The position numbers and the translations under genes are program-made. The notes below the pieces were generated by a model, which worked only from the letters and a program-made list of their open reading frames with translations, did no database searches and was not told where the DNA came from. This document shows, piece after piece, positions 1 to 45,053 of a stretch of DNA of 48,562 bases (position 1 is the first letter of the stretch; each line of letters opens with the position of its first letter). The stretch covers positions 1-48,562 of the IMG/VR virus record IMGVR_UViG_3300033518_000147. The stretch is one strand, 5' to 3'. This DNA is from a virus (lineage: Duplodnaviria; Caudoviricetes).

Positions 1-945
1 AAATCTCACAACATAAGTAAAGCGATTGATAAGTTAGAAGGAGGAGTGCGTGAGGTAGTTGGAATTTCTAATAACGATAGAAAAAACTCACAAGTTAAAG
101 GATGTATGTCATTTGATAAAACGTTAAAAGAAAATGATGTTCACGAGACTATTAACATCACAGCTCCAGCAACTGAAAACGCTAAAAAATGGAATGGCTT
201 TGGTACAGCTTTAAAGCCAGCACATGAAGATATCTGTCTAGCTCGTAAGCCAATTCAGGCTAATACGATTGCAGAGAATGTTTTAACGTTCGGTACAGGT
301 TCGTTGAACATTGACGGCTGTAGGGTTGGTGGTGCAAGTTTTAAAGAGCTTGCTAGAGAAAACAAGTCTGATAAAGGGATGTTTGGAGTAGGTAATAATA
401 ATAATAAAGCACAAATTGATCTTGAAAACGGAAATGAATGTGCTGGACGCTTTCCTGCTAATTTGATACACGATGGCTCTCCAGAGGTTTTAAGCGTGTT
501 TCCGAATACTTCTGGATCATCAGCAAGCCGTTATTTCTATTCAGCGAAGTGCAATAACCGTGATCGCAACGAGGGATTGGAAGAGTTTGAAAGTAAGAAG
601 ACTGGATGTCTTACTGGAAATCTTATTGAAGGAGCAAGATTAGGAGGAGACGGAAGTCCTATTAAAACTCCTGTAAGAGAGAACGTACATCCGACGGTGA
701 AACCTACAGATTTGATGGCGTATTTATGCCGTTTGATCACTCCAGTGGGTGGTACGGTGCTTGATATGTTTAACGGGTCAGGAAGCACTGGAAAAGCGGC
801 TATCCGTGAGGGGTTTAAGTATATCGGCTGTGAGTTGGATGTAAATTACGTCAATATATCGAAAGCACGTATAGATTTCGAGCAAAAACGTGTTGATGAT
901 AATAATGCAAAAAAGTTAGAAAAAGAATTGAAAAAAGCAGCGTGA
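1..945 (+). CDS. Phage DNA methyltransferase (N4-C/N6-A family), 5' end outside the window
   Basis: Frame is open from base 1 (KSHNISKAIDK); motifs GTALKPAHEDI, GRFPANL, HPTVKP and SAM-binding VLDMFNGSGSTG. Confidence 0.9.
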   Translation, partial: KSHNISKAIDKLEGGVREVVGISNNDRKNSQVKGCMSFDKTLKENDVHETINITAPATENAKKWNGFGTALKPAHEDICLARKPIQANTIAENVLTFGTGSLNIDGCRVGGASFKELARENKSDKGMFGVGNNNNKAQIDLENGNECAGRFPANLIHDGSPEVLSVFPNTSGSSASRYFYSAKCNNRDRNEGLEEFESKKTGCLTGNLIEGARLGGDGSPIKTPVRENVHPTVKPTDLMAYLCRLITPVGGTVLDMFNGSGSTGKAAIREGFKYIGCELDVNYVNISKARIDFEQKRVDDNNAKKLEKELKKAA

Positions 946-1395
946 TTACAAGCGTTTAACTGATTTAACGGATGTATTTATGGAGGAACCAGTCTTATCA
1001 ACTGGTTTTTCTACTTTATCTTGCTCTTCTAATACATCTATTAATGTATGTTTTTCTTCATCAGCACTTTGCATTGCTATGTAATCATCATAACCAAAAG
1101 GTATATAAAACATACCTATTACGAAGCGGTTAAATTTTAATGATTCTGTAAATATTACGAACTGTAGAAAATGAGATTTATTTTCATCATTCCAGTTCAT
1201 TGAAATCTTTGCAGGCTTATCTTTAACGTACTGATTAATAAATTGCTTTTTTGTTAGATTTGCAAATTGTTTGATATTGACGTCTTTTACTAGCTGGTTC
1301 ATTGTATTTCTAAATTCTATTTCAGTTATAGAATCGAATACGTAATCTAAAATGTCGTCTTTTACTGAAATATCAACGCTTCTACGCATGTGCAT
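946..1395 (-). CDS. Hypothetical protein with shared C-terminal tag (EKHTL...VKRL)
   Basis: 149-aa ORF, GGAG upstream; resembles the neighbouring 1408-1854 protein. Confidence 0.8.
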   Translation of the reverse strand: MHMRRSVDISVKDDILDYVFDSITEIEFRNTMNQLVKDVNIKQFANLTKKQFINQYVKDKPAKISMNWNDENKSHFLQFVIFTESLKFNRFVIGMFYIPFGYDDYIAMQSADEEKHTLIDVLEEQDKVEKPVDKTGSSINTSVKSVKRL

Positions 1396-1407
1396 GGAAC
1401 TACTCCA

Positions 1408-1854
1408 TTAAAGACGTTTTGGATCGTATTTTTCATTGATCGCTTTCATTTCTTTTCTGACACGTCTTCTATTTGCATTAGTTATAGGACGCCATTTTAT
1501 GTCAGATAAGATTTTCTGTTCTTTTAGCGAAACCGACAGTGCAACAAAATGTTCATAATCACCAGATATCTTAAACATAACGCTAGCAATATTTGGACTT
1601 CCATCTTCATTCTTACCGTTATTTAAAGTTAACAATAATAAATTGTCTCCATTTATGTCTTGAGTAAACCTTATTCTATAATTCTTATTCTCCATGCTTT
1701 GTTTCACGAAAGACCATCTATTTATCTTCTTTGAATACAGTCCATCTATATTGTAGAACATACGCATTGTTGTAATCCCACGTTGATAGTCTTCTTTTTT
1801 AATTGATTTGATAGCCAGTTTAAATGCTGGATCTGTGTGTAGTATTTCTTGCAT
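1408..1854 (-). CDS. Hypothetical protein with shared C-terminal tag (EQKIL...PKRL)
   Basis: 148-aa ORF starting 1 nt after the upstream stop, GAGG SD inside the upstream KRL codons. Confidence 0.8.
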   Translation of the reverse strand: MQEILHTDPAFKLAIKSIKKEDYQRGITTMRMFYNIDGLYSKKINRWSFVKQSMENKNYRIRFTQDINGDNLLLLTLNNGKNEDGSPNIASVMFKISGDYEHFVALSVSLKEQKILSDIKWRPITNANRRRVRKEMKAINEKYDPKRL

Positions 1855-1855
1855 T

Positions 1856-2581
1856 TTAGAGCCTCTTAGTGATGGAAGTAGCTGGAGCTGGTGTCTTGGT
1901 GCATTTTAGTAGTGCAGTGCGTTCTTTCTTCGATGTCTTCTCATCAATGATGTGCTGGAACGCTTCTTTGTTGGTCAGATGGTACTGAGCGCTTACACGC
2001 TTGATCTGAGACTGTCTATTGCTTGAAAGATGATAGAGGAATGATGCATTGTTCAGAGACGCTTTAATGATATCAACGTCCATCTTGAGGCTTAGGTTGC
2101 ATTGATGGTAGTAGTTAAGACAGTTAGAGCACAGAACGAGCATGTACTCTTTACGCTTAGCAAAGACCTTGGGTAGGTGTACACAGTAGAACACATCTTG
2201 CTTTGTTTTAATGCACTCAAAGAACGCAAAGAACGCCTCGTTAATCCGTTGAATGGAGTACGGTGCAAAGATATACATACGGGGATAGTTTTTAATCGCA
2301 ATTAGAGCTATCTCTCTGTCTGATGCGTAGAGAGAATTAAAAGAATCTATCATGTAGATATAAGCACAATCCTCTTGTTTAATACATGCTAGAGCTATAT
2401 CCCTATCTTGTTGAAATTCTCTTTCTAAACATAAGAAAACTCCACCCTCCTGGCTATCATTGATTATTGTAATTAATTCGTGCTTAGTTCTAACAGTGGG
2501 AAGAGAAGTAAATATTCCTTCTTGTACTTCCATTATTATGTTTTGCAAGTCTTGACTTTGTAATAATTGATCGTTGTTCAT
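1856..2581 (-). CDS. DUF4116-like helical repeat protein with C-terminal tag (ERTAL...TKRL)
   Basis: Repeats FQQDRDIALACI, YASDREIALIAI, LKMDVDIIKASL; SD TAAGGAG. Confidence 0.8.
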   Translation of the reverse strand: MNNDQLLQSQDLQNIIMEVQEGIFTSLPTVRTKHELITIINDSQEGGVFLCLEREFQQDRDIALACIKQEDCAYIYMIDSFNSLYASDREIALIAIKNYPRMYIFAPYSIQRINEAFFAFFECIKTKQDVFYCVHLPKVFAKRKEYMLVLCSNCLNYYHQCNLSLKMDVDIIKASLNNASFLYHLSSNRQSQIKRVSAQYHLTNKEAFQHIIDEKTSKKERTALLKCTKTPAPATSITKRL

Positions 2582-2604
2582 TTATTCTCCTTATTTGTTA
2601 TAAA

Positions 2605-2613
2605 TTATCCACA
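2605..2613 (+). promoter_or_regulatory. Consensus DnaA box TTATCCACA
   Basis: Exact 9/9 match, overlapping the start of the first 20-bp repeat. Confidence 0.65.
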
Positions 2614-2683
2614 GCGCCAAACCCCCGTATTCAGCGCCAAACCCCCGTATTCAGCGCCAAACCCCCGTATTCAGCGCCAAACC
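2612..2683. repeat. Tandem 20-bp direct repeat CAGCGCCAAACCCCCGTATT x3 plus a 12-bp partial copy (iteron-like)
   Basis: Identical units at 2612, 2632, 2652; partial at 2672. Confidence 0.95.
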
Positions 2684-2699
2684 TTAGTTCTAAGTAAGT

Positions 2700-2823
2700 A
2701 AAACCGATGAAAGGTAAAAAACCGATGAAAGGTCAAAAACCGATGAAAGGTCAAAAACCGATGAAAGGTCAAAAACCGATGAAAGGTCAAAAACCGATGA
2801 AAGGTCAAAAACCGATGAAAGGT
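2700..2823. repeat. Tandem 18-bp direct repeat AAAAACCGATGAAAGGTC x7 (iteron- or centromere-like)
   Basis: Core CCGATGAAAGGT at 2704, 2722, 2740, 2758, 2776, 2794, 2812. Confidence 0.95.
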
Positions 2824-2842
2824 ATTTTTTAAATAATTGCAC

Positions 2843-2873
2843 AAAAATGGACTACCTAACGGCAATCCATTTT
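2843..2873 (-). terminator. Probable intrinsic terminator after the 2891-3331 gene, just upstream of the repeat cluster
   Basis: Minus strand reads GGATTGCC-GTTA-GGTAGTCC-ATTTTT; G-U pairs work only on this strand. Confidence 0.65.
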
Positions 2874-2890
2874 AATTCACTCATTCAGTT

Positions 2891-3331
2891 TTACAGGCGT
2901 TTGGTCGGTGCTTTTTTTGTACTTGTTGCCTTTGTAACATTCTCAAGCATTTCTATTTCTTCGTAATATTCTTTAGAGTCTTCCAGTTGCTGTAAAATTA
3001 TTTTAACTGTAGAAAAGTTGTGAGTTGTTATGTAACAGTCTTCTTCTTCGTAAAATTCATAATATAAATCAAATACTGCTTTCTCTTCATCGCTAAGATT
3101 ATTTTCCCTTTTATCTTCTATATTTAATCTGTTGAACTTTATCAGCTCGTTATTTAAATAATCTTTTAATAATTTATAAGATTGCAAGTCAATTTCTTTA
3201 TTTTTTATCATGCTAAGTATAAATCTTTTGTTTACATAATCCTCTTCAAAGTATTCACTAAAAATATCAAGATAGTCTCCCGTTTTTGTATCAAAAATAA
3301 ACTCTTTTAAATCAATATTAAGTAAATCCAT
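2891..3331 (-). CDS. Acidic hypothetical protein with C-terminal tag (EIEML...TKRL)
   Basis: 146-aa ORF, SD TAAGGGG. Confidence 0.8.
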   Translation of the reverse strand: MDLLNIDLKEFIFDTKTGDYLDIFSEYFEEDYVNKRFILSMIKNKEIDLQSYKLLKDYLNNELIKFNRLNIEDKRENNLSDEEKAVFDLYYEFYEEEDCYITTHNFSTVKIILQQLEDSKEYYEEIEMLENVTKATSTKKAPTKRL

Positions 3332-3507
3332 TTTATTTCCCCTTATTTTTCTTATTTCCTACTATTAGTATAACTCTTTTTTATAATTTATCAACTATTT
3401 TTTATAACATTTCATAAAAATTTTATAACGTATGACAGACGGCAAAGCTTTTTATTATTAATAGATTATAATGTTAATTGAAAATTATAAAATAAGGGAG
3501 AAGTAAA
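3332..3507. promoter_or_regulatory. Very AT-rich divergent promoter region between the two accessory arrays
   Basis: Genes diverge from here; TATAAT at about 3467; SD sequences at both ends. Confidence 0.55.
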
Positions 3508-3828
3508 ATGATTTATAGCAAAAATGACAATTTGGTTTTAAATGCGATTGAAATATTAAAGAAAGATCAATTTACGTTTACTGATGGCAAAAACATGTAC
3601 ATACATGACGAGACATCTAATCCAATAATAAAATTCTTGTGCTATTTCTTTATTAAAAAGGTAGATATATTAGATTATTTACAATTGAGCGAAGTTATAG
3701 ATGTGGAATATAACCCTCCAAACCTAACAATTGAACAGGTACTAGATTATCGCGGAAAGATATGCCGATTTCACAATGAGTTGAAGAGGATTAGAGAGTG
3801 TAATGGATTGATAAAGTATTCAGAATAA
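3508..3828 (+). CDS. Hypothetical protein, probable paralog of 5366-5812, lacks the C-terminal tag
   Basis: MIYSKNDNLVLNAIEILKK vs MIYKKGDPILLMAIKILNK; LDYLQLSE vs LEYIELSE. Confidence 0.75.
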   Translation: MIYSKNDNLVLNAIEILKKDQFTFTDGKNMYIHDETSNPIIKFLCYFFIKKVDILDYLQLSEVIDVEYNPPNLTIEQVLDYRGKICRFHNELKRIRECNGLIKYSE

Positions 3829-3848
3829 AAACAATAAGGAGAACGACA

Positions 3849-4232
3849 ATGAAATTAAAGTATGTCAATTTAATACATCAAGAATTGCTTGAACACTTGG
3901 ATGAAGACTCTTTTGAGGTTTGGAATTGCAGCGATAAACCATTTGGTATGCATAAATACGACGAATTACACCCTTTAATTAATCCTAAGCACACTTATAC
4001 AACGTTTATGAAAGAGCTAGAGCATGAACAGTACGACGTATTCGTTGATAAGTTTTTCAACATACCAGGATCAATGTTAACTTATTACTTGGAAGACACA
4101 AGAATTTACATCAATTCTGATCTGACGTATGAAGAGGCTGCTGCGATTGTGTTGTCTCGCAAAGAGGCTGAGCTATTAGAAGGGATCGTAAAGCAGTGCT
4201 TGAATACATCGTCTAAACGGGGAACATTATGA
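3849..4232 (+). CDS. Hypothetical protein with C-terminal tag (EAELL...KRGTL)
   Basis: 127-aa ORF, SD TAAGGAG, ATGA overlap with next gene. Confidence 0.8.
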   Translation: MKLKYVNLIHQELLEHLDEDSFEVWNCSDKPFGMHKYDELHPLINPKHTYTTFMKELEHEQYDVFVDKFFNIPGSMLTYYLEDTRIYINSDLTYEEAAAIVLSRKEAELLEGIVKQCLNTSSKRGTL

Positions 4233-4465
4233 TGATAGTTAAAAAAATATTTTATAAGGAGTTGCTTGATGAGGCTATGAAAACTTCTGTTCAACCGCTC
4301 GAATGTGAAGGAATAAAGTATTACACAATTGAATTGCTTGAGCTGGCATTTAAAGAAATAGAACTTCACAAAAAATCTGAAGAGGAAAAAGCGTTATTAG
4401 AACAAGAGCTTGGCGTTAAAGAAGAGAAAAAGAATGACAATAAGGTAATAGGAGGCAGGCTATGA
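4229..4465 (+). CDS. Small hypothetical protein with C-terminal tag (EKALL...GGRL)
   Basis: 78-aa ORF with ATGA overlaps at both ends. Confidence 0.75.
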   Translation: MMIVKKIFYKELLDEAMKTSVQPLECEGIKYYTIELLELAFKEIELHKKSEEEKALLEQELGVKEEKKNDNKVIGGRL

Positions 4466-5025
4466 ATCAAAATATCAATTTGGGTGGGGTATGTGGAGAT
4501 CCTGGTCTTTCAGGAATTAAGGGACAAATAGGAATGTATAGTAAAAGTGAGTTCAGTAGAAGGAGATCTCTGAATAGAAATGAAGTATTAAAAGAAGTTA
4601 AAGAAAACGCATATTTACTAGCTTATGTACGTGCTGAATTTCAATCAGATAAGGAAGTAGTACTTGCAGCAATTAATAATAACACTTTTGCTCTGGAATA
4701 TGCAAGCAAGACTATTAGAAACGATAGGGAATTTATTTTAGAAGTAGTAAAGAAAAACGGATTTGCTCTAAAGTTTGCTAAAAATAGACTTAAAAAAGAT
4801 AAAGAAATAGTGCTTAATGCGTTGCAAGATTATGAATATAATTTAGATTATATAGATGTCGTATTAAAAAAGAAGATTAAACAACTCGTATCAGATAATA
4901 TTTGTGCAAATTGTGTTGATGCAGTAAAGCATTTAATAGCAAAAGAAGAGAGAAAATTGTTGAAGAAAGCAATTGGTTCAAAAGGAAAAGAGAAGAGCGT
5001 TAATACTATTGGAGGACGATTATGA
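4462..5025 (+). CDS. DUF4116 repeat protein with C-terminal tag (ERKLL...GGRL)
   Basis: Repeats DKEVVLAAINNNTFALEYAS, DREFILEVVKKNGFALKFA, DKEIVLNAL. Confidence 0.85.
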   Translation: MNQNINLGGVCGDPGLSGIKGQIGMYSKSEFSRRRSLNRNEVLKEVKENAYLLAYVRAEFQSDKEVVLAAINNNTFALEYASKTIRNDREFILEVVKKNGFALKFAKNRLKKDKEIVLNALQDYEYNLDYIDVVLKKKIKQLVSDNICANCVDAVKHLIAKEERKLLKKAIGSKGKEKSVNTIGGRL

Positions 5026-5369
5026 AGCTTAAATACAAGGGAAAGCGTAGAACGGATGGGAAGATAAAATTATTCAAAGTAAATAGAAGTAGTGCAAGTG
5101 GAGACGGTAGGACTGTTAGGGTGGTAATAAGTCTACCATTGCCAAGCAATTTAAATTATCATACATATATTTGGATTGCGTTTTTATCTTTTAAAAGATC
5201 ACAATATGATAAAGCTATAAAGAAACGCATTATGATACAAGCTCATAATATAAGTTTTGAAGATTTACGTGATCTTGAAGGTAGAGCTGAAGTCTGGTAC
5301 GTGCGTATGAAATTAAAACAAGCAATACCAGTAGATAATATAAAAACAACAAAGAAGGAGTGGTTATGA
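5022..5369 (+). CDS. Basic hypothetical protein with variant C-terminal tag (VRMKL...KKEWL)
   Basis: 115-aa ORF, GGAGG SD, ATGA overlaps. Confidence 0.75.
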   Translation: MKLKYKGKRRTDGKIKLFKVNRSSASGDGRTVRVVISLPLPSNLNYHTYIWIAFLSFKRSQYDKAIKKRIMIQAHNISFEDLRDLEGRAEVWYVRMKLKQAIPVDNIKTTKKEWL

Positions 5370-5812
5370 TATACAAGAAAGGAGATCCAATATTATTAAT
5401 GGCAATTAAGATATTAAATAAAGCTAGAGATGATGCAAATGGAATAAACAATCCATTTTATCTAGAAGTGAAAACAGATGATATTCCTAAAGAGTGCTTT
5501 CGATTTGTTAATGATATGACCATAGCATTTGATGCATTTGATTATGGAGAAACATTTGATTTTAGTGGAAACAAAATTAAAACTTTGAATGACTGTTTAG
5601 AATATATAGAACTAAGTGAAGATAATGTAAATGTTTTAGATTATCACAATTCTAAAGGTGATATTGATTACCAAAAATGGTATCAATCAGTGCATAAAAA
5701 CGGATTGTGTATCATGAGAGAGCGTAAAGCACTAGAAGACTCTATAAAGATGGATTGTGATAAAGCGTTAGAAAAGGCGTTGGCAATAAAGAGAACAGGA
5801 GGACGACTATGA
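5366..5812 (+). CDS. Hypothetical protein with C-terminal tag (ERKAL...GGRL)
   Basis: Start moved to ATG 5366 (AAGGAG SD, ATGA overlap, aligns with the 3508 paralog). Confidence 0.8.
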   Translation: MIYKKGDPILLMAIKILNKARDDANGINNPFYLEVKTDDIPKECFRFVNDMTIAFDAFDYGETFDFSGNKIKTLNDCLEYIELSEDNVNVLDYHNSKGDIDYQKWYQSVHKNGLCIMRERKALEDSIKMDCDKALEKALAIKRTGGRL

Positions 5813-6132
5813 AACTGATTAAATTGTTTGACGTTAAAAGAGAACCAATAGGCAAGCACAAGGATTCGTATTGCATTGTGTTTTATAAAAACAAAGCCAG
5901 TCGTTATACCTGTATGAACGAACAGCTCTTTGATAAGGGAACGCACCACGTCTTTGTCGGAAACATCCCGAACGATGACAAGCTCCATATGTTTAGTAGC
6001 TTTCCAGTCAATAAGCTGGACTGTTTAAAGATACACGCAGCAGAGCAATGGTATGAAGCAATAAAGGAAAGAGCCTTATTAGAAAAAGAATTAGAAATAA
6101 ATTACAAACCGATAAAAATTAAGTCATTATAG
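5809..6132 (+). CDS. Hypothetical protein with C-terminal tag (ERALL...IKSL)
   Basis: 107-aa ORF, GGAGG SD, ATGA overlap. Confidence 0.78.
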   Translation: MKLIKLFDVKREPIGKHKDSYCIVFYKNKASRYTCMNEQLFDKGTHHVFVGNIPNDDKLHMFSSFPVNKLDCLKIHAAEQWYEAIKERALLEKELEINYKPIKIKSL

Positions 6133-6143
6133 GAGTATAATTT

Positions 6144-6173
6144 AACCTTTCCATAACAAGAAAGGTTTTTTTT
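6144..6173 (+). terminator. Intrinsic terminator
   Basis: AACCTTTC...GAAAGGTT followed by a T run. Confidence 0.65.
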
Positions 6174-6176
6174 ATT

Positions 6177-6623
6177 ATGTTTAAAGAACGATTTGATCCT
6201 CAATTAATAGCACTAAGACAAGAGTTTAAAAGGCAAATGGTCTTTTTAACTGCTGAAGAGTTAGTCCATCATTGCATCTATAACACACGTGGAAAGAGAA
6301 TTTGTGAGCGGATGATGAAGAGTCATGCTTACACCATGAAATACAATGATTTTCTAGAAGATATGGATTTGTTGGAAATTTACAACTATATCTCAACATG
6401 TATCACAATGAAACGACAAGGTGATGAAGTCTATTTATCTAATAGTGATACCAAAGACACAGCAGCAGTAAGCGGAAGACTTGCTATCATGATTGGATTG
6501 ACGTTAGAGAAGATCTTATTGTTTCTCAACTCACAAGAATACAGGAGTCATCTTGAGCGTATCAAGTTGAATGAATCTGTTCCCGTGCCGTACAAAGCAA
6601 AGCAACGAGCCATTGCACTATAA
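6177..6623 (+). CDS. Hypothetical protein with C-terminal tag (ERIKL...RAIAL)
   Basis: 148-aa ORF. Confidence 0.75.
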   Translation: MFKERFDPQLIALRQEFKRQMVFLTAEELVHHCIYNTRGKRICERMMKSHAYTMKYNDFLEDMDLLEIYNYISTCITMKRQGDEVYLSNSDTKDTAAVSGRLAIMIGLTLEKILLFLNSQEYRSHLERIKLNESVPVPYKAKQRAIAL

Positions 6624-6633
6624 GGAGCAACGC

Positions 6634-6957
6634 ATGACTATTGATGATAAAGACGAATTGCTTATAGCAGTAAAGAAAGACGGGCTAGCACTCAAACATG
6701 CAAGCGATGCACTGAAGAATGATAAGGAAGTAGTTCTAGCAGCAGTCAAGCAAGAGGGATGTGCCTTACAGTATGCAAGCCAAGAGCTTAAAGCAGATAA
6801 GGAAGTCGTGTTAAAAGCAGTAAGACAGACATCATGGACAATACAGTATGCTAGTCCAGGTTTATATTATGACGTTTGTCGAATAGGAACCAATTACGTT
6901 AAAGCACTAAAGCAACTCATTGCAGAAGACATAGGAAGTTTAGCCAAACCTCTTTAA
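6634..6957 (+). CDS. DUF4116 repeat protein
   Basis: Start at ATG 6634 after TAAGGAG; repeats LKNDKEVVLAAVKQEGCALQYAS, LKADKEVVLKAV. Confidence 0.85.
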   Translation: MTIDDKDELLIAVKKDGLALKHASDALKNDKEVVLAAVKQEGCALQYASQELKADKEVVLKAVRQTSWTIQYASPGLYYDVCRIGTNYVKALKQLIAEDIGSLAKPL

Positions 6958-7050
6958 TTGTCTTTATGAACGAGCGGAGCGTAGTGTAATACATAACCAA
7001 ATCCGAAGGATGTTTTGTTATTTAATATTCTATAAAAGGATGTTAAATGA

Positions 7051-7225
7051 ATTGTGCCTTATGCATCCTGTCTTATTGTATCTTATGCATTAGGTATTGT
7101 GTCTTATGTATTACTATGCCTTATGTGTTATGAATCCCGTATTGTGTCTTATGTCTTATAGGATGTTATAAGGTATTCATGTATGTGTATTGTATTCATT
7201 GTATTGGATCCATGCATGCCTTATA
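7051..7225. repeat. Cluster of short (ATTGTG)YCTTAT(G) repeats
   Basis: About 8 copies of YCTTAT, several as ATTGTGYCTTATG (7051, 7096, 7141). Confidence 0.7.
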
Positions 7226-7560
7226 CATCATAGATAGCACGTCAATCCTATCATTAATTGCACGTCTTTAGAGAGATCAGGTGTATTGCTATTAAACCAT
7301 TAACAGAACGCCTATTACACTCATAAAACGCAGTACTTACACTCATAGTAGGATGTTTAACTCATTCACCGCACCGCACTATCATTCACAGCAGGACGTT
7401 TAACCATTAAAAGCCGATCTATTTACTCATTCACCGCACAGCATACACTCAAAGCAAGGCTATTTAACTCATTAATAGACATTCATTTTATTAATAGCAG
7501 GACGTTTAACTCATTGAGAGGAGAGCTTACTATCATTAGAAGCAATGCTTACTACCAAGG
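7225..7560. repeat. Degenerate tandem array with about 21-23-bp period (ACTCATT / TATCATT core)
   Basis: Core CAT/CAA at 7298, 7322, 7344, 7363, 7383, 7405, 7428, 7450, 7470, 7512, 7534, 7556. Confidence 0.7.
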
Positions 7561-7815
7561 ATAGGAGAGAGTATTATTAAAATTGTGGGAAAGCGGGAAG
7601 AAATAGAGAGGAAAGCGTAATAAAAACCAAGTCTGTTTAGATCCCGTCTTTCTTATTCTCACCATTTCCACAATTTATTAGCAAAAATAATAATTTTGGT
7701 TAAATTTACGCCTATTTTATGTCAACGTCCACACTATTTACCTAAAGCTAAAACTACTAATACTAATAAAAAGTAAAATATTCGTGAATCATAGTCATTC
7801 CACTAATAATCTAAC

Positions 7816-8715
7816 GCACGCCTATTATAAAAAACAATTGATTTACGGGGTATTTTTGGGTGTTTTCGAGGAGAAAAAGAGAAAAGAAAAAAAGAGGCAC
7901 GAAAAAACACGGGCTGAGACAAAAATTATTTTTAAATCTCTTCGCAATTAAATAGAAAATTGCAAGTAGTAAACTATCATAATAATAGCACGCCTTTGAT
8001 AACATTAATCGCACGCCATTAGTATCATTCATAGCACGCTATCATTGAAATGAAAGCACGCCCTCTCTACGCCATAACGCATTGCTCCTTAGTGCCTTAT
8101 CGCAGTGCCATAACGCAACGATAGACGGACGATCTGCCGGGTTTACTCGGCTTTATTGGTGTGCTGGGGTTGGGAAGACATTAGAAGCCTGACGCTTGGA
8201 TGAAAAACAGCAAGGGGTACTCCCGGGGGTAGGCTTTTCTTTTGGGGGTGCGGGATTTGGGAAGGCGTAGATATATACACATTTCTGGGTACAAGCCTTT
8301 CCACTGATCGCACCTCTGTTAATGGTTTTAAACACGCACGCCTAGTGTGTGGGCATTAAACGCTTGATAAAGCAATGGTCTTAATCGCTTGATAAAGCCG
8401 TGTCTATTAACGTCTGCCTTAGTGTGGTTAATCTCCTTTCAATTAATGGTGTTAAATGGTCTGCTTGTGTTAGTTGCATAAAACAACAATATAGCAAGAC
8501 AATGAGTGATCTTATCGCACGCCTATTAATGAGGGGTGGGGTAGTACGGGGTAGTCCTTTATAGTGCTAAAACAAGCAATAAAGCGGGTCTTTTCATTTA
8601 AAAAATGCACGGTTATACTATTCTTATGTTGGTAAACGTATTTAATAAAAAAAGATTAACAAAGAGGTACTTTTATGAGTAATAGCACTGCAAATAATGA
8701 GATGGATGGCACGCC
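7816..8715. repeat. Repeated GCACGCC motif upstream of and into terS
   Basis: Copies at 7816, 7988, 8011, 8034 (GCACGCT), 8056, 8336, 8517, 8709; four are spaced 22-23 bp apart. Confidence 0.75.
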
Positions 8716-9313
8716 TATAGAAGAAGAAGACGATAAGCCTGTTTCGGGTAAAACGCAATGGGTGTCTCCTTATATTCAGTCCTTGGATCTAGAAGCAGCA
8801 ATCGGAAAAAAGATAACCAAGAAACAAGAGCACTTCGCAATGTTATTGTCTCGTGCGGGGATTGATAACATGACCGATTACATGTGTTATAAAATAGCCT
8901 ATGGTAGAGATAACGATACCATGGAAACCCTACGTGTTAATGCATCTAAAACTAAAGCTATTCCTGCTGTAACAGAAGCGGTTAAATACTTTAAAGACTT
9001 CTTCTCAAAGAAAGCGGTAAAGTCGTTTGAGTATGGTGTGGAAGAAGCCTTTCGTGATTATGAAGAGGCTCATGCTATTGCTAGGGAAAAGAGAGACGCT
9101 AAAACAATGGTGTTGTGCACTTCTAAGAAAGCAGAATTGAACGGCTTAATTATCAAGAGAACGGAAAATATTACTCCGGAAAGATCTATTGACGCATTGG
9201 ATCAAGAGATACTGCAATTCTTAAAGAGCCTACCTAAGGATATAGTAAAGAGAGTAGCGGAAGATGTAACGGATATAGAAGTGATAGAGGCTAAGAAAAT
9301 AGGTAATAAGTAA
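8675..9313 (+). CDS. terS: Terminase small subunit
   Basis: ITKKQEHFA...YKIAY N-terminal HTH pattern, helical oligomerisation region (KAELNGL); first gene of the packaging module. Confidence 0.8.
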   Translation: MSNSTANNEMDGTPIEEEDDKPVSGKTQWVSPYIQSLDLEAAIGKKITKKQEHFAMLLSRAGIDNMTDYMCYKIAYGRDNDTMETLRVNASKTKAIPAVTEAVKYFKDFFSKKAVKSFEYGVEEAFRDYEEAHAIAREKRDAKTMVLCTSKKAELNGLIIKRTENITPERSIDALDQEILQFLKSLPKDIVKRVAEDVTDIEVIEAKKIGNK

Positions 9314-9379
9314 TTTGACATTGTATTTTATTGTGTCAAGATAATAAGTGGTTTCAATATATATACAAGGAGAACCACT

Positions 9380-10282
9380 ATGAACCCGTCTTATACCAAT
9401 GAGTATTCTAATTTTAAAGAGCAATTAAAACTACTCAATCCGTCAATGCAAATCACGTTTACTTTAAATGACAGTAAACAAATCGTCTGCAATTATTCCG
9501 ACATTGAAGCAAAGAACGACTTGCTCATTATTAAAAGCAATTCGGATGCTTCAATAAATATCATACCTTTATCTAGCGTTGCATACATTACTGGTAAAAG
9601 TAATGATCATGTATTAAAGGTCGATCATATTGCTAAATATAGTCCCGTAAAATCGGAGATCCATTCTGATAAAAAAAGAAGACTGGTGTTAGCTGGAAAT
9701 CAGACAGGTAAAACGACCATCATTCTTTCAGAAATAGTGAATCTGCTTAGAAACAAGAATAAGAAAATTTTTGATCAAGCATTTCCTCCTTATCGCTATG
9801 TTCAGATAGACCATGCTTTTTGCGATATTGTTTATGCAACCTATAATTCATTTGGTTTAAAAGTTTTTGCTGATAAACTAAAATGCCTTATGGGAAATAA
9901 TATTAACATCACGTATGAAGGAGGAATTCCGAAATATGCATCATCAGATTTTATAAAAGGCAAGATCATATTTATATCATATGAAAGCTATTTGGGAGAT
10001 TTAAAGCAATATGATAACGTACACTCGTTTTATTTTGATGAAGAGCCTCCACTTTCTTTTGTACAGTGTTTAAGTCTCCTTAATCAAAACGTTAATGTGC
10101 TGTGCTGTATGACTCCATTAAACGGGTTATCTGAATCAGTCAAGTTTATGAAAAGAAACGATTATCAAGAATATAATTTATCAGTCGATGAATGTAATTT
10201 TCATTCAAAAGAGAGAAAAGAATTTATTCAAGATAGTTATACAAGAGCCAATTGTATTAGCAGATATCACGGCATGTATTGA
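9380..10282 (+). CDS. Truncated terminase-large-subunit ATPase paralog with an unrelated (Sm/Hfq-like?) N-terminal domain
   Basis: Walker A AGNQTGKT, Walker B FYFDEEPP, coupling motif MTP; ends before the nuclease domain. Confidence 0.8.
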   Translation: MNPSYTNEYSNFKEQLKLLNPSMQITFTLNDSKQIVCNYSDIEAKNDLLIIKSNSDASINIIPLSSVAYITGKSNDHVLKVDHIAKYSPVKSEIHSDKKRRLVLAGNQTGKTTIILSEIVNLLRNKNKKIFDQAFPPYRYVQIDHAFCDIVYATYNSFGLKVFADKLKCLMGNNINITYEGGIPKYASSDFIKGKIIFISYESYLGDLKQYDNVHSFYFDEEPPLSFVQCLSLLNQNVNVLCCMTPLNGLSESVKFMKRNDYQEYNLSVDECNFHSKERKEFIQDSYTRANCISRYHGMY

Positions 10283-10368: not shown

Positions 10369-11136
10369 ATGACTGAACGTGTTTATGGTTGGGTTCCTGA
10401 TGTGTCGGATCATCGGGATTTATATTTCTCTGCTACTTCTTCCTTTGGAGTTCGTCTTCCTGATCATGTAGAAATAATGGGAAGAGATAATCCGATAGAA
10501 AATCAGGGCTCACTTGGTTCATGCACAGGAAACGCTGTTACTTCTGCTTTTGAAATAGTATTAGATGTCAATCCAAAGTCTCGGTTATTTGTTTATTACA
10601 ACGCACGCCTAATTGAAAATTCTGTTGATATTGACGCTGGTGCAATGTTACGTGATTGCATAAAAGGCTTAATCAAGTATGGTGTATGCAACGAGTATAC
10701 GTGGGAATATGATATCTCCAAATTTGCTGTAAAGCCTTCTGATTCTTGCTACGAGGAAGCATTAGATATGACTACGATCATAGAGAGATATGAAAGAGTT
10801 ACAACATTAAAAGATATTAAGATTGCTTTGTCTAATGGCTTGCCTGTAATATTTGGATTTGCAGTTCCAGATTATTTCGATTCAGAAGATTATTCAAATG
10901 GGCATGTATTACGTTTACCTACCGATAGAGACGCTATTGTTGGTGGGCATGCTGTTGTAGCAGTTGGGTATGACGATAGAGAATCTGTGCCAATAATTCA
11001 TGTAAGAAATTCTTGGGGAACCAGATGGGGAGATGACGGTTATTTCAAAATGGATCAAAAGTGGTTTACAGATAAGCGTAGGCTTTGTGATGATATGTGG
11101 GTCATTCATCCAATTACTAAAACGGATGGTGTTTAA
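10369..11136 (+). CDS. Papain-family (C1A, xylellain-like) cysteine protease
   Basis: QGSLGSCTGNA (catalytic Cys), GGHAV (His), RNSWG (Asn); N-terminal YGWVPDxxDHRD. Confidence 0.93.
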   Translation: MTERVYGWVPDVSDHRDLYFSATSSFGVRLPDHVEIMGRDNPIENQGSLGSCTGNAVTSAFEIVLDVNPKSRLFVYYNARLIENSVDIDAGAMLRDCIKGLIKYGVCNEYTWEYDISKFAVKPSDSCYEEALDMTTIIERYERVTTLKDIKIALSNGLPVIFGFAVPDYFDSEDYSNGHVLRLPTDRDAIVGGHAVVAVGYDDRESVPIIHVRNSWGTRWGDDGYFKMDQKWFTDKRRLCDDMWVIHPITKTDGV

Positions 11137-15127: not shown

Positions 15128-16156
15128 ATGGCTGATACTAGTTCATTTGACTTTAACTACGAGGATCTAAATGCTCCCAGAGATTTAAGTCTGTTAGGTG
15201 GAACAGATTTTGACGCTACATCGGATACATCCTCTTCTAGCGAAGACGACACAACGCAAACAGATCCAGCAACGGTAGAGGTGCAAGATGATAAAGACAC
15301 AAAGAGCACAACAGATACAACTGCACAAGATCCAGCTGGAACAAGTAGCCAAGATGATTCAAAAGATAAAGAAGTCGATACTGCAACAACAGAAGATAAA
15401 ACAGAAAAGTCTGAGAAGAAAAACACTGATCTTATCCCTGCTGCTCGATTATCAAAGGTCACTCATGAACGCAATGAGTTGAAAGCTCAATTAGCTGCAC
15501 TGCAAGCTCAAGTAGATGCACAAAAACCCGTAGTCATTCCTGAGGTTACTCAACTATCCGAAAACTCTTCTAAATTTGATTTAAAAGCAAAACAAAAGGC
15601 TTTTATAGATGCTGTACAAGAGGGTAATGGTGAGGCAGCTTTACAAATTCAAGAAGAAATAAACGACTATAAAGACGAAGTACAAAACAAGAAATTGGAA
15701 GAGCGTGCACGTGCATTAGAGATCAAGCGTTTAAATGAACAACAAGAATTATTAGCAAACAATACTGCTTTCGTTGTATTGCAACAATATAAATTCTTAG
15801 ATGAAAATCATCCTACTAAAAATCAAGAGGCTATTGATGAAGTAAGAGACTTTCGTATTATGTATGAAAGCAAGGGATTTACTACTGCTCAAGCATTGCT
15901 TAAAGCGGTAGAACGGGTGGTCCCTTTATACAATGAAAGCACTTCTGACGCTCCATCCACTACTGCAACATCAGGAAAGAGACAACAAGAGAGTGTTTCT
16001 AAGGCTTTAGAGACTTCTTCAAGAATTCCTCCTAAAACTAATAGTATTGGAATAGGTAATAAACCAGATATCGGACGTATTAATGTTGAAAAAATGTCGC
16101 AAAATGATTATGAAAAACTTTCAATGACAGAAAGACGTAAGTTATTAGGTGGTTAA
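15128..16156 (+). CDS. Capsid scaffolding protein
   Basis: Acidic disordered N-terminus, IPAARL then coiled coil, C-terminal MSQNDYEKLS; between portal and capsid. Confidence 0.8.
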   Translation: MADTSSFDFNYEDLNAPRDLSLLGGTDFDATSDTSSSSEDDTTQTDPATVEVQDDKDTKSTTDTTAQDPAGTSSQDDSKDKEVDTATTEDKTEKSEKKNTDLIPAARLSKVTHERNELKAQLAALQAQVDAQKPVVIPEVTQLSENSSKFDLKAKQKAFIDAVQEGNGEAALQIQEEINDYKDEVQNKKLEERARALEIKRLNEQQELLANNTAFVVLQQYKFLDENHPTKNQEAIDEVRDFRIMYESKGFTTAQALLKAVERVVPLYNESTSDAPSTTATSGKRQQESVSKALETSSRIPPKTNSIGIGNKPDIGRINVEKMSQNDYEKLSMTERRKLLGG

Positions 16157-16427: not shown

Positions 16428-17546
16428 ATGCCGGATACACAATTCACGCTGACTCAATCTGAAAAGGTTGCTTGGTCAAAAGAAGCTATTAAAGCTTATA
16501 GAGAAAAATTATTTTTCAAACCATTTATCGGAAATAGTACAGAATCAATAATTCAGCAATTCACTGAATTAGATAGCAATTCGGTTACTGGTGGAACAAT
16601 AAGAATGGGTTTAGTTGATGACTTAGGTGGGACTGGTAAGGGTGGAGATTCTGATATTGAAGATGCTTCTGAAGCAATGACTTCCAGCGAACTCGATATC
16701 CTTATCGACACATTATCTCACTCTACTATGTCTCATGGACGTTTAGAAGACAAACGTGCTCACTTCAATTTTAGAGAGCAAGCTAAAGACAAGTTAGGTC
16801 GTTGGATGGCTAAGGCTATTGACGAGTTAATGTTCAATACATTGTATGGAACATCTTACGCTTTAAAATTAGATGGTTCAGCTCGTGTTGTTCCTGCTAA
16901 TCAAGACGCTTGGACTACTCAACGTTATGCTGCTGATGTTTCTGCTGCTACTGCTGGACGTCATTTTAACTGGACTGGAACTGCTTTAGTTGCCGGTGAT
17001 ACTACGACTGTCACTACTGCTTATACCGCTTCCTATAAAATGTTGTTAAAGGTTAAAGCAAAAGCTCATTTATCTGGTATCAAGCCTTTGATTATAGGTG
17101 GAAAAGAGTTCTACGCTATCATAATGCATCCTGATGCATTCACAGCATTGAAATTGGATGCTGATTTCAGAGCCAACTTGATCAATGGATTACCAAGAAG
17201 CGGTGAGAATCCAATATTCACGGGTGCTGATGAAGTTACTATGGACGGATTAATAATCTATACACATAGAAACGCTTTGAACACTACGGGTGTTGCTTCT
17301 GGATCCAAGTGGGGTGTTGGTGGTTTAGTTGAAGGTTCTTCTTGCTTGGTGTTAGGTGTGCAAGCTCTTGGATATGCAAATATCTACGGAAAAATGAAGT
17401 GGGACGAAAAACTCTTTAACTTTGATCGTAAAACGGGTATTGCTGTATCCATGATGTTTGGTATGAGAAAAACAAAATTCAAATCTGAATACAATGGAAA
17501 TGCTGTTGAAGACTTCGGCGCATTACGTGTAAACATTGCTATCTGA
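16428..17546 (+). CDS. Major capsid protein (N4-gp56/DUF4043-like)
   Basis: Start at ATG 16428 after AGGAG; NFREQAKDKLGRW, IMHPD, NPIFTG, EDFG; followed by a strong terminator. Confidence 0.92.
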   Translation: MPDTQFTLTQSEKVAWSKEAIKAYREKLFFKPFIGNSTESIIQQFTELDSNSVTGGTIRMGLVDDLGGTGKGGDSDIEDASEAMTSSELDILIDTLSHSTMSHGRLEDKRAHFNFREQAKDKLGRWMAKAIDELMFNTLYGTSYALKLDGSARVVPANQDAWTTQRYAADVSAATAGRHFNWTGTALVAGDTTTVTTAYTASYKMLLKVKAKAHLSGIKPLIIGGKEFYAIIMHPDAFTALKLDADFRANLINGLPRSGENPIFTGADEVTMDGLIIYTHRNALNTTGVASGSKWGVGGLVEGSSCLVLGVQALGYANIYGKMKWDEKLFNFDRKTGIAVSMMFGMRKTKFKSEYNGNAVEDFGALRVNIAI

Positions 17547-40500: not shown

Positions 40501-40935
40501 ATGACAACCATTATCGCTAGCGTTTCTCAACAATCAATGGCATCGGATAGTTGGGGCACAATAGAACCTCTTCCCTTTGCTCTCATTAAAAAGATTTACC
40601 GACTAAAGAACGGGGAATTGCTTGGATTCGCTGGAGACGTTGATAATGCGTATTGTTTTATAGATTGGTGTAATAAAGGCTTTGATTTAAAGAATAAACC
40701 TACTTTTAATGAAGATAGGATGATTGCTCTAATATTAAAGAAGACGCATATCACTCTATACACAAAATCATTCATCCCTTTAAGATTACATAATGACTTT
40801 TACGCTATTGGAACTGGAGCTGACGCTGCTACTGCTGCAATGATTTGTGGAAAATCATTAAAAGATTCCATTGAAGTAGCTTGTAAAGTAGATTATGCAT
40901 ATTCTGGATTGCCTGCTGTCGTAAAGAAATTATAA
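40501..40935 (+). CDS. Ntn-hydrolase (HslV / proteasome beta-like) phage peptidase
   Basis: N-terminal MTTII, ASDS, KI, GFAGD, AIGTGADAA, ACKVD. Confidence 0.82.
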   Translation: MTTIIASVSQQSMASDSWGTIEPLPFALIKKIYRLKNGELLGFAGDVDNAYCFIDWCNKGFDLKNKPTFNEDRMIALILKKTHITLYTKSFIPLRLHNDFYAIGTGADAATAAMICGKSLKDSIEVACKVDYAYSGLPAVVKKL

Positions 40936-41025: not shown

Positions 41026-42678
41026 ATGTCAAAGAACTATAAAAATAAGGACAATTACGACAGATGGTTAAAAGAATGGAACTCTAACGGTAGATTAGCA
41101 ACAAAAGCAGCTCATACAGTAGGAGTTAGACCTAGAACAGCACGAGATTGGGCTTTTGAAATTAAAGAAACAGAGAAAAAATCTAATGTATGTATTACTA
41201 TTAATGCTGAAACAAAAGAAGAAATAGATCCATTCAATAAACACATAGAAGATACTTTAAAATCTAACACTACTAAAACAGCAAAACGCTTTCACGAAGA
41301 AGAAGTAGAGACTTTTAAGAACTATAAGACGTTCGTAATAACCAGTGTTCAAAACGATACTCCTATCAATGAGGATGCACTTTTAGCACTAGAAAATTAT
41401 TGCTTTATTCATAATGCTAAACTGATTATTGTTCCTAGTCTTTATAAATTTAGCCTTACTCATTCTAAATTTAATGTCGATAAAAAGTATCTGATGTTTA
41501 AAAACGTTCAGATAAACAATAAATTAAAGCTTTTATCAACTTTAAACATATCACCCTCTATCACTGCACCATTAGCTGGTATTGATAACCTATCAATGGG
41601 TTTAAGCGTTATTGTTCCTCATCCTCAAGTTGAACGCAAACCTCTTCCTTCTTTAACGGGATCTCCTGCTCTCATGCAAACGACAGGATCTATCAGTTTA
41701 AGAGATACATGCTACTCCAACACAAAGACAGGCTATAAAGCCGAATTCCATCACTCTTACAGTGCATTAGTCGTTGAATTAGGAGAAGGTAATGAGTTCT
41801 TTATGCGTTGCCTTAATTTCGATGACGATAATGGATTTTTTGACATCAAAGGCTATTACACAAAAGATACGTTTACAAAATTGAATGGAGTTGAAGGGAT
41901 TGCGTGCGGTGATATACATGTAGACGTTTTAGATGAAGAATTAAAGCAAATGTTCTTTATAAAACCTGATTGCGTTTTAAACGTATTAAAGCCATCAAAG
42001 TTGATATTGCACGATCTGATTGACTTTGGATCTGGAAGTCATCACGATAATTCTAATTATCTTTTAAAAGCAGCTAAACATTTGACTGGAGTAAATGATG
42101 TTGCAAAAGAATTGTGTAGATCGGCACAATTTTTAGAAGAGATTAAAAGAGATGATATGGAAGTAATTTTAATTCCATCGAACCATAACGATCATGTCTA
42201 TAAATGGTTAACTACTTCTAATCCGCATTACGACTTGCAAAATAGCGTGATTTATCACTTCCTTTGTTATCACATGTTAATCAACATAGAAGAGACTAAG
42301 ACGGGTCCTAAATTCCCTAATTTAATTAAATTATTTTATGAAAATTGGAAGCATGGCTATTCTCTTCCAAATATTAACTACTTGAATAGATCACAAAGCT
42401 ACAAGATACATGACGTTGAACTCTCTCAACATGGTGATGTTGCTGTTAATGGATCCAAAGGTTCTCCTGCTGGATTTGCACGCATTCCATCTAAAACAAT
42501 AATTGGTCACTCTCACTCTGCTCAAATAAAGTACGGCTGTTATCAATTAGGAACATTTTCTTATCTGAATTTACCTTATGCAAATGGTGCTAGTACCTGG
42601 ACTCAAACGTTTGTTGTTATCTATCCAAACGGAAAAAGACAAATGATAGATATCATTAATGGTAAATGGCACGGTTAA
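41026..42678 (+). CDS. Metallophosphoesterase / nuclease resembling phage T5 A1, with N-terminal HTH-like segment
   Basis: ITSVQNDTP, KAEFHH, GDIH, HDLID, SNHND, HGD..NG, GHSH, YPNGKR; 550 aa. Confidence 0.75.
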   Translation: MSKNYKNKDNYDRWLKEWNSNGRLATKAAHTVGVRPRTARDWAFEIKETEKKSNVCITINAETKEEIDPFNKHIEDTLKSNTTKTAKRFHEEEVETFKNYKTFVITSVQNDTPINEDALLALENYCFIHNAKLIIVPSLYKFSLTHSKFNVDKKYLMFKNVQINNKLKLLSTLNISPSITAPLAGIDNLSMGLSVIVPHPQVERKPLPSLTGSPALMQTTGSISLRDTCYSNTKTGYKAEFHHSYSALVVELGEGNEFFMRCLNFDDDNGFFDIKGYYTKDTFTKLNGVEGIACGDIHVDVLDEELKQMFFIKPDCVLNVLKPSKLILHDLIDFGSGSHHDNSNYLLKAAKHLTGVNDVAKELCRSAQFLEEIKRDDMEVILIPSNHNDHVYKWLTTSNPHYDLQNSVIYHFLCYHMLINIEETKTGPKFPNLIKLFYENWKHGYSLPNINYLNRSQSYKIHDVELSQHGDVAVNGSKGSPAGFARIPSKTIIGHSHSAQIKYGCYQLGTFSYLNLPYANGASTWTQTFVVIYPNGKRQMIDIINGKWHG

Positions 42679-42696
42679 TAATTTAAATTTAATAGC

Positions 42697-42721
42697 AAGC
42701 CTCCTAAAAGGGGGCTTTTTT
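42697..42721 (+). terminator. Intrinsic terminator
   Basis: AAGCCTCC-TAAAA-GGGGGCTTTTTT. Confidence 0.8.
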
Positions 42722-42771
42722 ATTTCTATTTTATGATATAAGATAATGTTATATTAGCAGGAATATCAATA

Positions 42772-43017
42772 ATGGATAAAGTAAACAGACGATATAAAGC
42801 TATTCTTGCTTTGCTTATATTTACAGCAATATTCTTATCTACTTTATCTGTACAAGCAAAAGAACAGATAACAGAAAATCAAGATGGATCAATAACAGTA
42901 TCAAAAGAGGCTCTGGCTGAATGGTTGCAACTGCGAGCATTGCAAGACATTAAACAAAGAGAATTAGATAGACAGATTAAAGAGATTGAAAAGAAGTTAA
43001 CCTATAAGTGCTCGTAA
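42772..43017 (+). CDS. Small exported protein with signal peptide at the head of the lysis cassette
   Basis: Basic N-region, hydrophobic core, VQA cleavage site. Confidence 0.65.
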   Translation: MDKVNRRYKAILALLIFTAIFLSTLSVQAKEQITENQDGSITVSKEALAEWLQLRALQDIKQRELDRQIKEIEKKLTYKCS

Positions 43018-43656
43018 ATGGAGAATAAAATGGATGAAGTTGAATTAGATTTAAGAGAGCAAATATTGAGAAAATACGGCATTCGCTTCCGTGATATGTT
43101 AAAGCATTTCATTAGATTTGAGGCTGGAAAAGATTTAGATGTTGTAATGCGTAATGATTTGTTCTGGTATGGCGACCTATCAACAAAAGATGGAAGATGG
43201 TTATGCGGTTATACAGACGGAAAGACTGGAGCATCTAAAAAAGATAAAGGCGGAGAAACGAAATACGGATTTGCTCAAAATTCACACAAGAATTTAGTAG
43301 TGCGTGATCTTATATTTCCAGATGTAGTAGATCTTTATTATGAGTTATATGCTACTCCAATGCGATACGAAGAATTAAAAGCAAAAACAGCTGATGTGGT
43401 ATTAGATATTGCTGTTGGATCTGGACCTGGAAAAGCAATAAGAATGTTACAAAAGGTTTTAAAAATAACTCAAGATGGAATATTTGGACCAAGAACGTTA
43501 GAAATAGCAAATGAGTATGACGATCATATATTATTTGAATTGCTATCAAATGAACGTGCTGCTTTTTATCACAGGATCGTATTTAATGATCCTACTCAAG
43601 AAATATTTATTGATGGATGGATTAATAGGGTTAATGGATTAAAGGAGATCGTATGA
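43018..43656 (+). CDS. Endolysin, glycoside hydrolase family 108 with peptidoglycan-binding C-terminus
   Basis: DKGGETKYG, DIAVGSGP, LQK.L....DGIFGPRT, FIDGWINRV; ATG 43030 (after GGAG) may be the true start. Confidence 0.9.
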   Translation: MENKMDEVELDLREQILRKYGIRFRDMLKHFIRFEAGKDLDVVMRNDLFWYGDLSTKDGRWLCGYTDGKTGASKKDKGGETKYGFAQNSHKNLVVRDLIFPDVVDLYYELYATPMRYEELKAKTADVVLDIAVGSGPGKAIRMLQKVLKITQDGIFGPRTLEIANEYDDHILFELLSNERAAFYHRIVFNDPTQEIFIDGWINRVNGLKEIV

Positions 43657-43952
43657 AAAGATTTGTAAAAGATTTGGTAACTGAATCTGATAATGAAACG
43701 TATGACTATAACAGAGTATTGATTATATTATTTGCGTTTTTAATCATATTTCTAACACTGTGGGTATTGTTTCATGATGGAAAAGTAGTAACGCAATTAA
43801 CGGAATGGATAGTAGCAATACTTGGTGGTGGTGGAGTAGGAAATGCTTTGAAGGGAAGATTTGAACCTCCTAGCCAAAGGGTTGTAATACCTCCTCCTAG
43901 ATCTGTTATTCCAGCGGGTAAGCCTATTGATCCAGAAGACGAAGTAAAGTAG
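43653..43952 (+). CDS. Holin
   Basis: Two hydrophobic segments, ATGA overlap with the endolysin. Confidence 0.7.
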   Translation: MKRFVKDLVTESDNETYDYNRVLIILFAFLIIFLTLWVLFHDGKVVTQLTEWIVAILGGGGVGNALKGRFEPPSQRVVIPPPRSVIPAGKPIDPEDEVK

Positions 43953-43970
43953 CATATAAACGGATTTATT

Positions 43971-44339
43971 ATGTCATTTCTAAATTTTCTAATACCTACC
44001 TGGTTTAAGTACTTGAGTCTTGTTCTAACAATCCTCGGCTTGTTTTTTTCGGGATGGTACAAAGGAGCTGAATACGAGCGAACACAAACGCTTGCAAAAG
44101 AAGCTCAACAAATTAACATCAAAATTATTGAGTTAAATGAGCGTATCAATTATCAAAACTTTTTAATAGCACAAGAGAATGCTATAAAAGTTGAAAAAGA
44201 AAAGGAGCGTGCATTAATTACAAAAGAACTTGATCAACAAAGAAAACACATCGCAGAACTCATTAAAAAGATTCCAGCTAACAAGGACTGCGATGTGCCA
44301 TCTGAAATTGTCGATAACATCAATGAGTTGTTAAAATGA
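43971..44339 (+). CDS. Rz-like inner-membrane spanin
   Basis: N-terminal TM (GLFFSGWYKG), coiled coil, C-terminal Cys. Confidence 0.78.
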   Translation: MSFLNFLIPTWFKYLSLVLTILGLFFSGWYKGAEYERTQTLAKEAQQINIKIIELNERINYQNFLIAQENAIKVEKEKERALITKELDQQRKHIAELIKKIPANKDCDVPSEIVDNINELLK

Positions 44340-44656: not shown

Positions 44657-44657
44657 T

Positions 44658-44685
44658 TTGACAATATCTATTATTTAGATATAAT
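44658..44685 (+). promoter_or_regulatory. Consensus sigma70 promoter for the tRNA cluster
   Basis: TTGACA-16 nt-TATAAT. Confidence 0.8.
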
Positions 44686-44815
44686 TTAATTGTTGCTTAG
44701 GTAGCTCCTAAGATAATCTAGCAAGCTGTAACAGCATCTGGTTAAGCTAGTGAAAGAAGACCTAATGACTCATTGTTAAGTCAATAGAATACTTAGGTAG
44801 TTCCAGAACAAATTT

Positions 44816-44890: not shown

Positions 44891-44895
44891 ATTAT

Positions 44896-44970: not shown

Positions 44971-44976
44971 AATATA

Positions 44977-45049: not shown

Positions 45050-45053
45050 ACAT

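Follow-up and report, generated by a model that had tools for sequence, protein, structure and literature searches.

A shared Leu-ended C-terminal tail on mostly unrelated accessory proteins of an uncultured temperate phage: a candidate sorting signal

The VirF-type signal of type IV secretion system (T4SS) substrates is an arginine-rich pattern. More generally, type IV signals occupy a short C-terminal stretch that is basic or hydrophobic and sometimes has two parts, as exemplified by the substrates of VirB/D4 (type IVA) and by the bipartite signal of Bartonella (PMC3912908; here and below, citations refer to excerpts of the papers). In the Dot/Icm (type IVB) systems, DotM binds solely acidic peptides, the E-block being an acidic Glu-rich stretch (PMC5802825), and the RalF-type signal has a hydrophobic residue or Pro at position -3 or -4 (PMC2701608). 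Conjugation machines of the F, IncN, and IncP systems also move proteins encoded off the plasmid, prophage-encoded ones included (PMC11288057). C-terminal peptides are further known as degrons, e.g., the MuA C-motif-2 read by ClpX, which is CILEQNRRKKAI, basic and then hydrophobic (PMC12723719), and as capsid-loading tags, since cargo fused to the C-terminal part of the P22 scaffold, which holds the coat-binding helix-turn-helix, is taken into the capsid (PMC9962691). Here, we compare these signals with the C termini encoded by 13 open reading frames (ORFs) of a phage (Caudoviricetes) known from IMG/VR record IMGVR_UViG_3300033518_000147. The whole entry, hereafter the window, is a linear contig of 48,562 nucleotides and is about 66% complete, with roughly one-third of the genome missing. 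The 13 ORFs form two divergent arrays placed between a DNA methylase gene and the packaging genes, and each is named below by its first coordinate (Table 1).

Nine of the array proteins carry a full tail, in which a short charged E-[R/K]-x-x-L motif, predicted to be helical, is followed by a basic linker and a final Leu. Terminal Leu occurs in 12 of the 13 array ORFs versus 4 of the 40 ORFs elsewhere on the contig (P=8e-8 by Fisher's test; 1e-11 by a binomial at 10% Leu); verification of all 13 ORFs and their ends bore out this count from the preliminary description, together with its four KRL ends written in four codon sets. E-x-x-x-L with 14-28 residues after its Leu, a distance window picked post hoc after the data had been seen, is found in 8/13 proteins and was matched by 2/20,000 shuffles of the last 45 residues (P~1e-4), and its frequency at the same distance from random internal cut points is 6.4%. 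In a ninth protein (ORF 5022), VRMKL stands in register in place of E-x-x-x-L. The spacing of exactly 17 residues after the anchor Leu, described for five ORFs, holds (1856, 2891, 3849, 5022, and 6177), the other four having 16, 20, 21, or 25. Eleven tagged proteins had been proposed; nine of them are in register, whereas EKHTL and EQKIL, at 31-32 residues from the end, fall outside the register and may have been picked by chance. With these two set aside and no motif in ORF 6634, three proteins carry the basic, Leu-ended part alone. The last 25 residues have a net charge of +1 to +6 in 11/11 proteins examined, with 1-5 acidic residues. A low-confidence single-sequence model of the ORF 4462 protein (mean predicted local distance difference test score 43.7) places the motif in a terminal helix at residues 149-175, followed by 12 coil residues. 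None of the 13 array proteins has a strongly hydrophobic, membrane-spanning segment (top 19-residue hydropathy, 1.53), and the structural genes of the phage lack the tail.

The external null comprised 140 IMG/VR loci, 136 of them retrieved by tail-like DNA patterns, with 1124 ORFs, of which 104 are Leu-ended, 81 contain the motif, and 16 combine the two features (Leu or Ile end). Both features occur in at most two ORFs per null locus versus 8/16 at positions 1-10000 of the window. The tag is real and apparently undescribed; literature searches, which covered titles and abstract openings of mostly open-access papers, retrieved no paper on this tail.

Does the resemblance reside in the peptide or in the DNA? 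Shared ends without any peptide function could be a by-product, generated by charged terminal helices and by ribosome-binding sites that overlap the gene ends. Indeed, six of the 12 Leu ends overlap the Shine-Dalgarno site of the next gene, five of them as ATGA stop/start overlaps, and E-x-x-x-L is a common helix pattern, as its frequency at random cut points indicates. The GG of GGRL and the KE of KEWL probably stem from this overlap. The terminal Leu does not, because 6/7 non-overlapping array ORFs also end in Leu (P=6e-6) and ATGA-overlap genes of the null loci seldom do so (3/28, none of them in RL, versus 5/5 in the array; P=2e-4). The null-loci comparison and the Leu ends at non-overlapping ORFs largely refute this by-product scenario, which we regard as highly unlikely. 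The same codon is used in 82 of 252 identical-residue pairs within the tails versus 89.1 expected, a chance-level identity that gives no sign of a recently copied DNA cassette.

A three-sequence tail profile, searched against 1.84 billion representatives, recovered a sole independent homolog, P0016, in which 63/165 aligned residues are identical to those of the ORF 1856 protein. This protein retains QRSALLKC, the linker, and RRL, a terminus that also speaks against the overlap by-product, and for this one pair identity is 13/24 over the last 24 aligned columns versus 38/106 in the body. Beyond it, the search returned four multi-repeat DUF4116 proteins; the profile extended by P0016 gave no further match, and no locus for the protein or its family was found in metagenome or viral contigs. 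Three near-identical database variants, too close for measuring selection, keep the tail unchanged. Enrichment, chance-level codon identity, and retention in one homolog support the view that the shared tag acts at the peptide level, in line with the selection on the peptide postulated at the outset. Free loss of the tail among homologs had been named as contrary evidence; the one independent homolog keeps the tail.

The N-terminal bodies are mostly unrelated, as first described. The exceptions are ORFs 1856, 4462, and 6634, which encode members of the DUF4116 (PF13475) repeat family (45.6, 91.3, and 112.1 bits, respectively; Pfam cut-off, 24.9), and ORFs 3508 and 5366, which are probable paralogs (30% identity over 82 residues, E=0.002 in a 13-sequence search). 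The tail is not a family trait, as far as inspection by eye of the 11 other DUF4116 proteins matched by ORF 4462 goes, none of which has it, and the DUF4116 gene region of phage Slicky01 lacks it too. Nine array proteins looked up in a 15-billion collection are singletons or pairs, and the homolog search with ORF 5366 returned only itself. Searches of the ESM Atlas gave no usable match for two query proteins, NCBIfam and PADLOC gave zero hits above cut-off, and PDB sequences gave zero significant ones.

Compared with VirB/D4 substrates and the bipartite Bartonella signal, the tail is likewise short, C-terminal, and two-part and sits on soluble unrelated bodies; the net positive charge of the last 20-30 residues that marks VirB/D4 substrates is present in all tails examined. 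It differs in having neither the VirF-type pattern nor a BID domain, in its fixed terminal Leu, and in being carried by a phage in which no T4SS genes were found. With Dot/Icm signals it shares the C-terminal position, a polar charged linker, an upstream Glu, and a hydrophobic residue near the end. The RalF-type residue is found in just 5/12 Leu-ended proteins (VKRL, PKRL, IKSL, AIAL, and AKPL, counting Ala). Overall, the tail resembles a C-terminal sorting signal of uncertain family: it has the charge feature of VirB/D4 signals and lacks two Dot/Icm ones.

The tails combine a free, basic terminus closed by Leu with a motif spaced from it at a preferred distance, and they sit on unrelated soluble bodies; this layout suggests that the nine accessory proteins likely share an address tag for one receptor. 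We infer that this single receptor would be a coupling protein serving a type IV secretion or conjugation machine, located in the host or a co-resident element, and that the machine would export the tagged proteins, whose genes would derive from a conjugative element and whose products would act in the recipient cell. By analogy with known signals, export through a type IV coupling protein is the reading that we tentatively favor, as possible rather than probable. The absence of the tail from the structural genes and from two relatives in capsid sequence fits imported cargo. These relatives belong to a set whose capsid proteins are 35-41% identical to that of our phage (Acidovorax phage AP1, the KPP25 group, and MW202615): among non-structural ORFs, AP1 has 2/50 Leu-ended and 0/50 with both features, and MW202615 has 1/35 and 0/35, respectively.

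Several results weigh against export through a type IV machine. No secretion or T4SS gene was detected among the 53 ORFs scanned, as already observed in the preliminary description, albeit in an incomplete contig. The tails are net basic and fail the acidic E-block rule, and their constant hydrophobic residue is at -1, not at -3/-4; of the preliminary interpretation, the shared peptide-level tag survives and all three machines proposed (a T4SS coupling protein, the virion ejection apparatus, or a protease) remain candidates, but a receptor of the Dot/Icm acidic type does not fit. The tail profile recovered only one independent homolog from that large collection of representatives. Co-occurrence of the tail with T4SS genes in related phages and plasmids, which the preliminary description had suggested looking for, was not seen: besides the two phages devoid of it, nine segments of plasmid DNA, each 40-50 kb long, contain 1/416 ORFs with both features and hence no evident donor. 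Seven of the segments come from six plasmids of the Dot/Icm type, in which IcmB was detected or already known, although all are small samples of 0.19-1.26 Mb plasmids and ORF calling was crude in GC-rich DNA. Nor was a host found. A tRNA-Thr-like 3' half at ~46214-46258, between the integrase and excisionase genes, is likely attP, and exact and relaxed patterns derived from it gave zero matches in GTDB, so that the host may be unsampled. Lastly, basic, hydrophobic-ended tails equally fit protease degrons.

As a two-part degradation signal, the tail would have its basic Leu-ended terminus read by a host protease, e.g., ClpXP, and its E-[R/K]-x-x-L helix by an adaptor, thereby making the proteins short-lived. 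Like the MuA degron, the tails place basic residues before a hydrophobic last residue (1-3 Lys/Arg within the last six residues of all 12 Leu-ended proteins), no special host machine would be required, and the phage itself encodes an HslV-family peptidase (40501-40935). HslV is activated by the Leu-ended tail of HslU. However, no tail ends in Ala-Ala or has MuA's run of four basic residues, and most end in R-L, with a basic residue at -2. A degron alone needs no upstream motif at a preferred 17-residue distance, and the search with the HslV-like gene gave no close relative for a co-occurrence comparison. We consider the degron unlikely. The HslV-family peptidase has an N-terminal MTT, its own end is KKL, and no HslU partner was seen.

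Capsid loading and a relic origin are both improbable in our judgment. For the former, the motif would mimic the coat-binding C-terminal helix of the phage scaffold and bring the proteins into the procapsid, to be delivered upon infection, much as P22 scaffold fusions are loaded. E[RK]xxL ends this phage's putative scaffold and the products of the genes at the same position in AP1 (EKRRLRGDIN) and MW202615 (EKRILRGD), i.e., 3/3 scaffold ends, and occurs just 15 times in 12,784 residues of non-array proteins; the arrays lie directly upstream of the packaging genes. Yet this likeness was spotted post hoc, and a matrix built from the nine tail cores ranks the phage's own scaffold end 8th of 12,550 windows, at 8.2 bits versus 13.8-19.5 for the cores used to build it, and scores the AP1 and MW202615 ends at -0.2 and 2.0. 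By eye, the tails lack the helix that precedes the motif in scaffolds, the first one of the P22 tag, and they extend 16-25 residues past the Leu versus 3-5. Moreover, AP1 and MW202615 have this scaffold end without tagged genes among the non-structural ORFs examined. In the relic scenario, the tail once worked on a donor element and the phage holds a captured block of tagged genes, consistent with two array genes without all or part of the tail (3508 and 6634), iteron-like repeats inside the array, possibly an origin or protein-binding array, and the lower G+C content of the array (33.2% versus 35.9% in the structural region). Against decay, all 13 reading frames are open and translationally coupled, and the tail is unchanged in the three database variants, whose closeness limits what they tell about selection; no donor was found in the plasmids sampled. 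That the phage keeps a library of unrelated tagged cargo, either exported via a type IV machine encoded elsewhere or packed into the head by scaffold mimicry, appears somewhat unlikely overall.

Further searches for the tail were negative. The GGRL-form DNA pattern retrieved 15 viral loci from IMG/VR, none of which encodes a GGRL tail in frame with an uninterrupted ORF, and the KRL-form pattern, with half of the collection scanned, retrieved 121 loci, none enriched. The tail profile gave no match in three whole plasmids and two proviruses, a comparison that had no positive control. As a separate observation, the Dot/Icm plasmid pBVIE03 encodes at 41152-46187 four adjacent hypothetical proteins with similar Met-ended tails (SPEM, SLGM, SFEM, and DLSM), a shared tail of different sequence.

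Table 1. Features of the two arrays and the putative scaffold gene (positions in the window; aa, amino acids; +n, residues after the anchor Leu)
Feature	Position	Strand	Description
ORF 946	946..1395	-	149-aa ORFan, ends VKRL; E-x-x-x-L (EKHTL) out of register, 31 residues from end; singleton cluster
ORF 1408	1408..1854	-	148-aa ORFan, ends PKRL; motif (EQKIL) out of register, 32 from end
ORF 1856	1856..2581	-	241-aa degenerate DUF4116; tail ERTAL+17 at 1856-1924, ends TKRL; end overlaps next gene's ribosome site
Iteron-like tandem arrays	2612..2825		Perfect repeats inside left array: 20-nt unit, ~3.6 copies; 18-nt unit, 7 copies
ORF 2891	2891..3331	-	146-aa acidic ORFan; tail EIEML+17 at 2891-2959, ends TKRL
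Divergent intergenic region	3332..3507		AT-rich, separates both arrays; one leftward sigma-70-like match
ORF 3508	3508..3828	+	106 aa, without tail; probable paralog of ORF 5366
ORF 3849	3849..4232	+	127-aa ORFan; tail EAELL+17 at 4164-4232, ends RGTL; ATGA overlap
ORF 4277	4277..4465	+	62 aa (78 aa from 4229); tail EKALL+21 at 4385-4465, ends GGRL; ATGA overlap
ORF 4462	4462..5025	+	187-aa DUF4116; tail ERKLL+20 at 4948-5025, ends GGRL
ORF 5022	5022..5369	+	115-aa ORFan; tail VRMKL+17 at 5301-5369, ends KEWL; ATGA overlap
ORF 5366	5366..5812	+	148 aa; tail ERKAL+25 at 5720-5812, ends GGRL
ORF 5809	5809..6132	+	107-aa ORFan; tail ERALL+16 at 6067-6132, ends IKSL
Terminator-like hairpin	6144-6167		After ORF 5809
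ORF 6177	6177..6623	+	148-aa ORFan; tail ERIKL+17 at 6555-6623, ends AIAL
ORF 6634	6634..6957	+	107-aa DUF4116, ends AKPL; without E-x-x-x-L, appears shortened versus ORFs 4462 and 1856
Putative scaffold	15128..16156	+	Lies between the portal and capsid genes; without a family match; C terminus ERRKLLGG (E[RK]xxL)

The start codons at 5366 and 6634 are likely, given their ribosome sites and database proteins of 148 and 107 residues, and that at 4277 is probably correct. Promoter-like sites of the divergent region are not above chance overall.

Gene content points to an uncultured temperate podovirus with a P22-type portal. Recognized proteins include the terminase, the portal, the major capsid protein (16428-17546), an LPD38 large polyvalent protein, an endolysin, spanins, an integrase, an excisionase, an H-NS-like protein, and, where the contig is cut, the end of an ArdC-like gene. 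A terminase search identified four related loci at about 50%, and related-phage searches with the integrase, capsid, and HslV-like genes gave no locus. Integrase and H-NS matches, at about 30% identity, point weakly to Burkholderiales. The sequence datasets in which this phage occurs are microbial mat metagenomes. Read run X1 covers the region piecemeal and may be the source sample; run X2 contains a relative about 86-92% alike over the integrase and lysis region, and its thin coverage of the array carries no information on what the relative encodes there.

Other parts of the contig also have unusual traits. Three tRNA genes lie at 44816-45049, for Asp, Glu, and one called tRNA-Stop (anticodon TTA) by ARAGORN; the latter, with an odd loop and a poor fold, may have decayed or may act as an ochre suppressor. 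TAA is the stop codon in 35/52 genes counted, and a contig from run X2 omits 44657-45056, the tRNA region. The segment 7051-7544 has no genes, precedes the small terminase-position gene, and contains short repeats of several families (TTGTGTCTTATG-like and AGGACGTTTAACTCATT-like); it may serve in packaging or regulation. Two ORFs are inserted before the large terminase gene, one for a papain-like C1 peptidase (10369-11136) and one that is terminase-ATPase-like or helicase-like (9380-10282). At 47798-48550, the ArdC-like fragment and its neighbor have basic ends (KPKRKTLTLK and KMKIKTTK) without a terminal Leu.

The basis of these findings is so far one genome and one homolog. If the tail is an export signal, the phage would use the secretion machine of another element to act on neighboring cells, and its 25-residue two-part peptide would be an easy probe of substrate choice by coupling proteins, which is still poorly defined. 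As a capsid tag or degron, it would offer a small new device by which proteins could be loaded or timed. Either export or head packing would amount to phage-run protein delivery on a borrowed address code.

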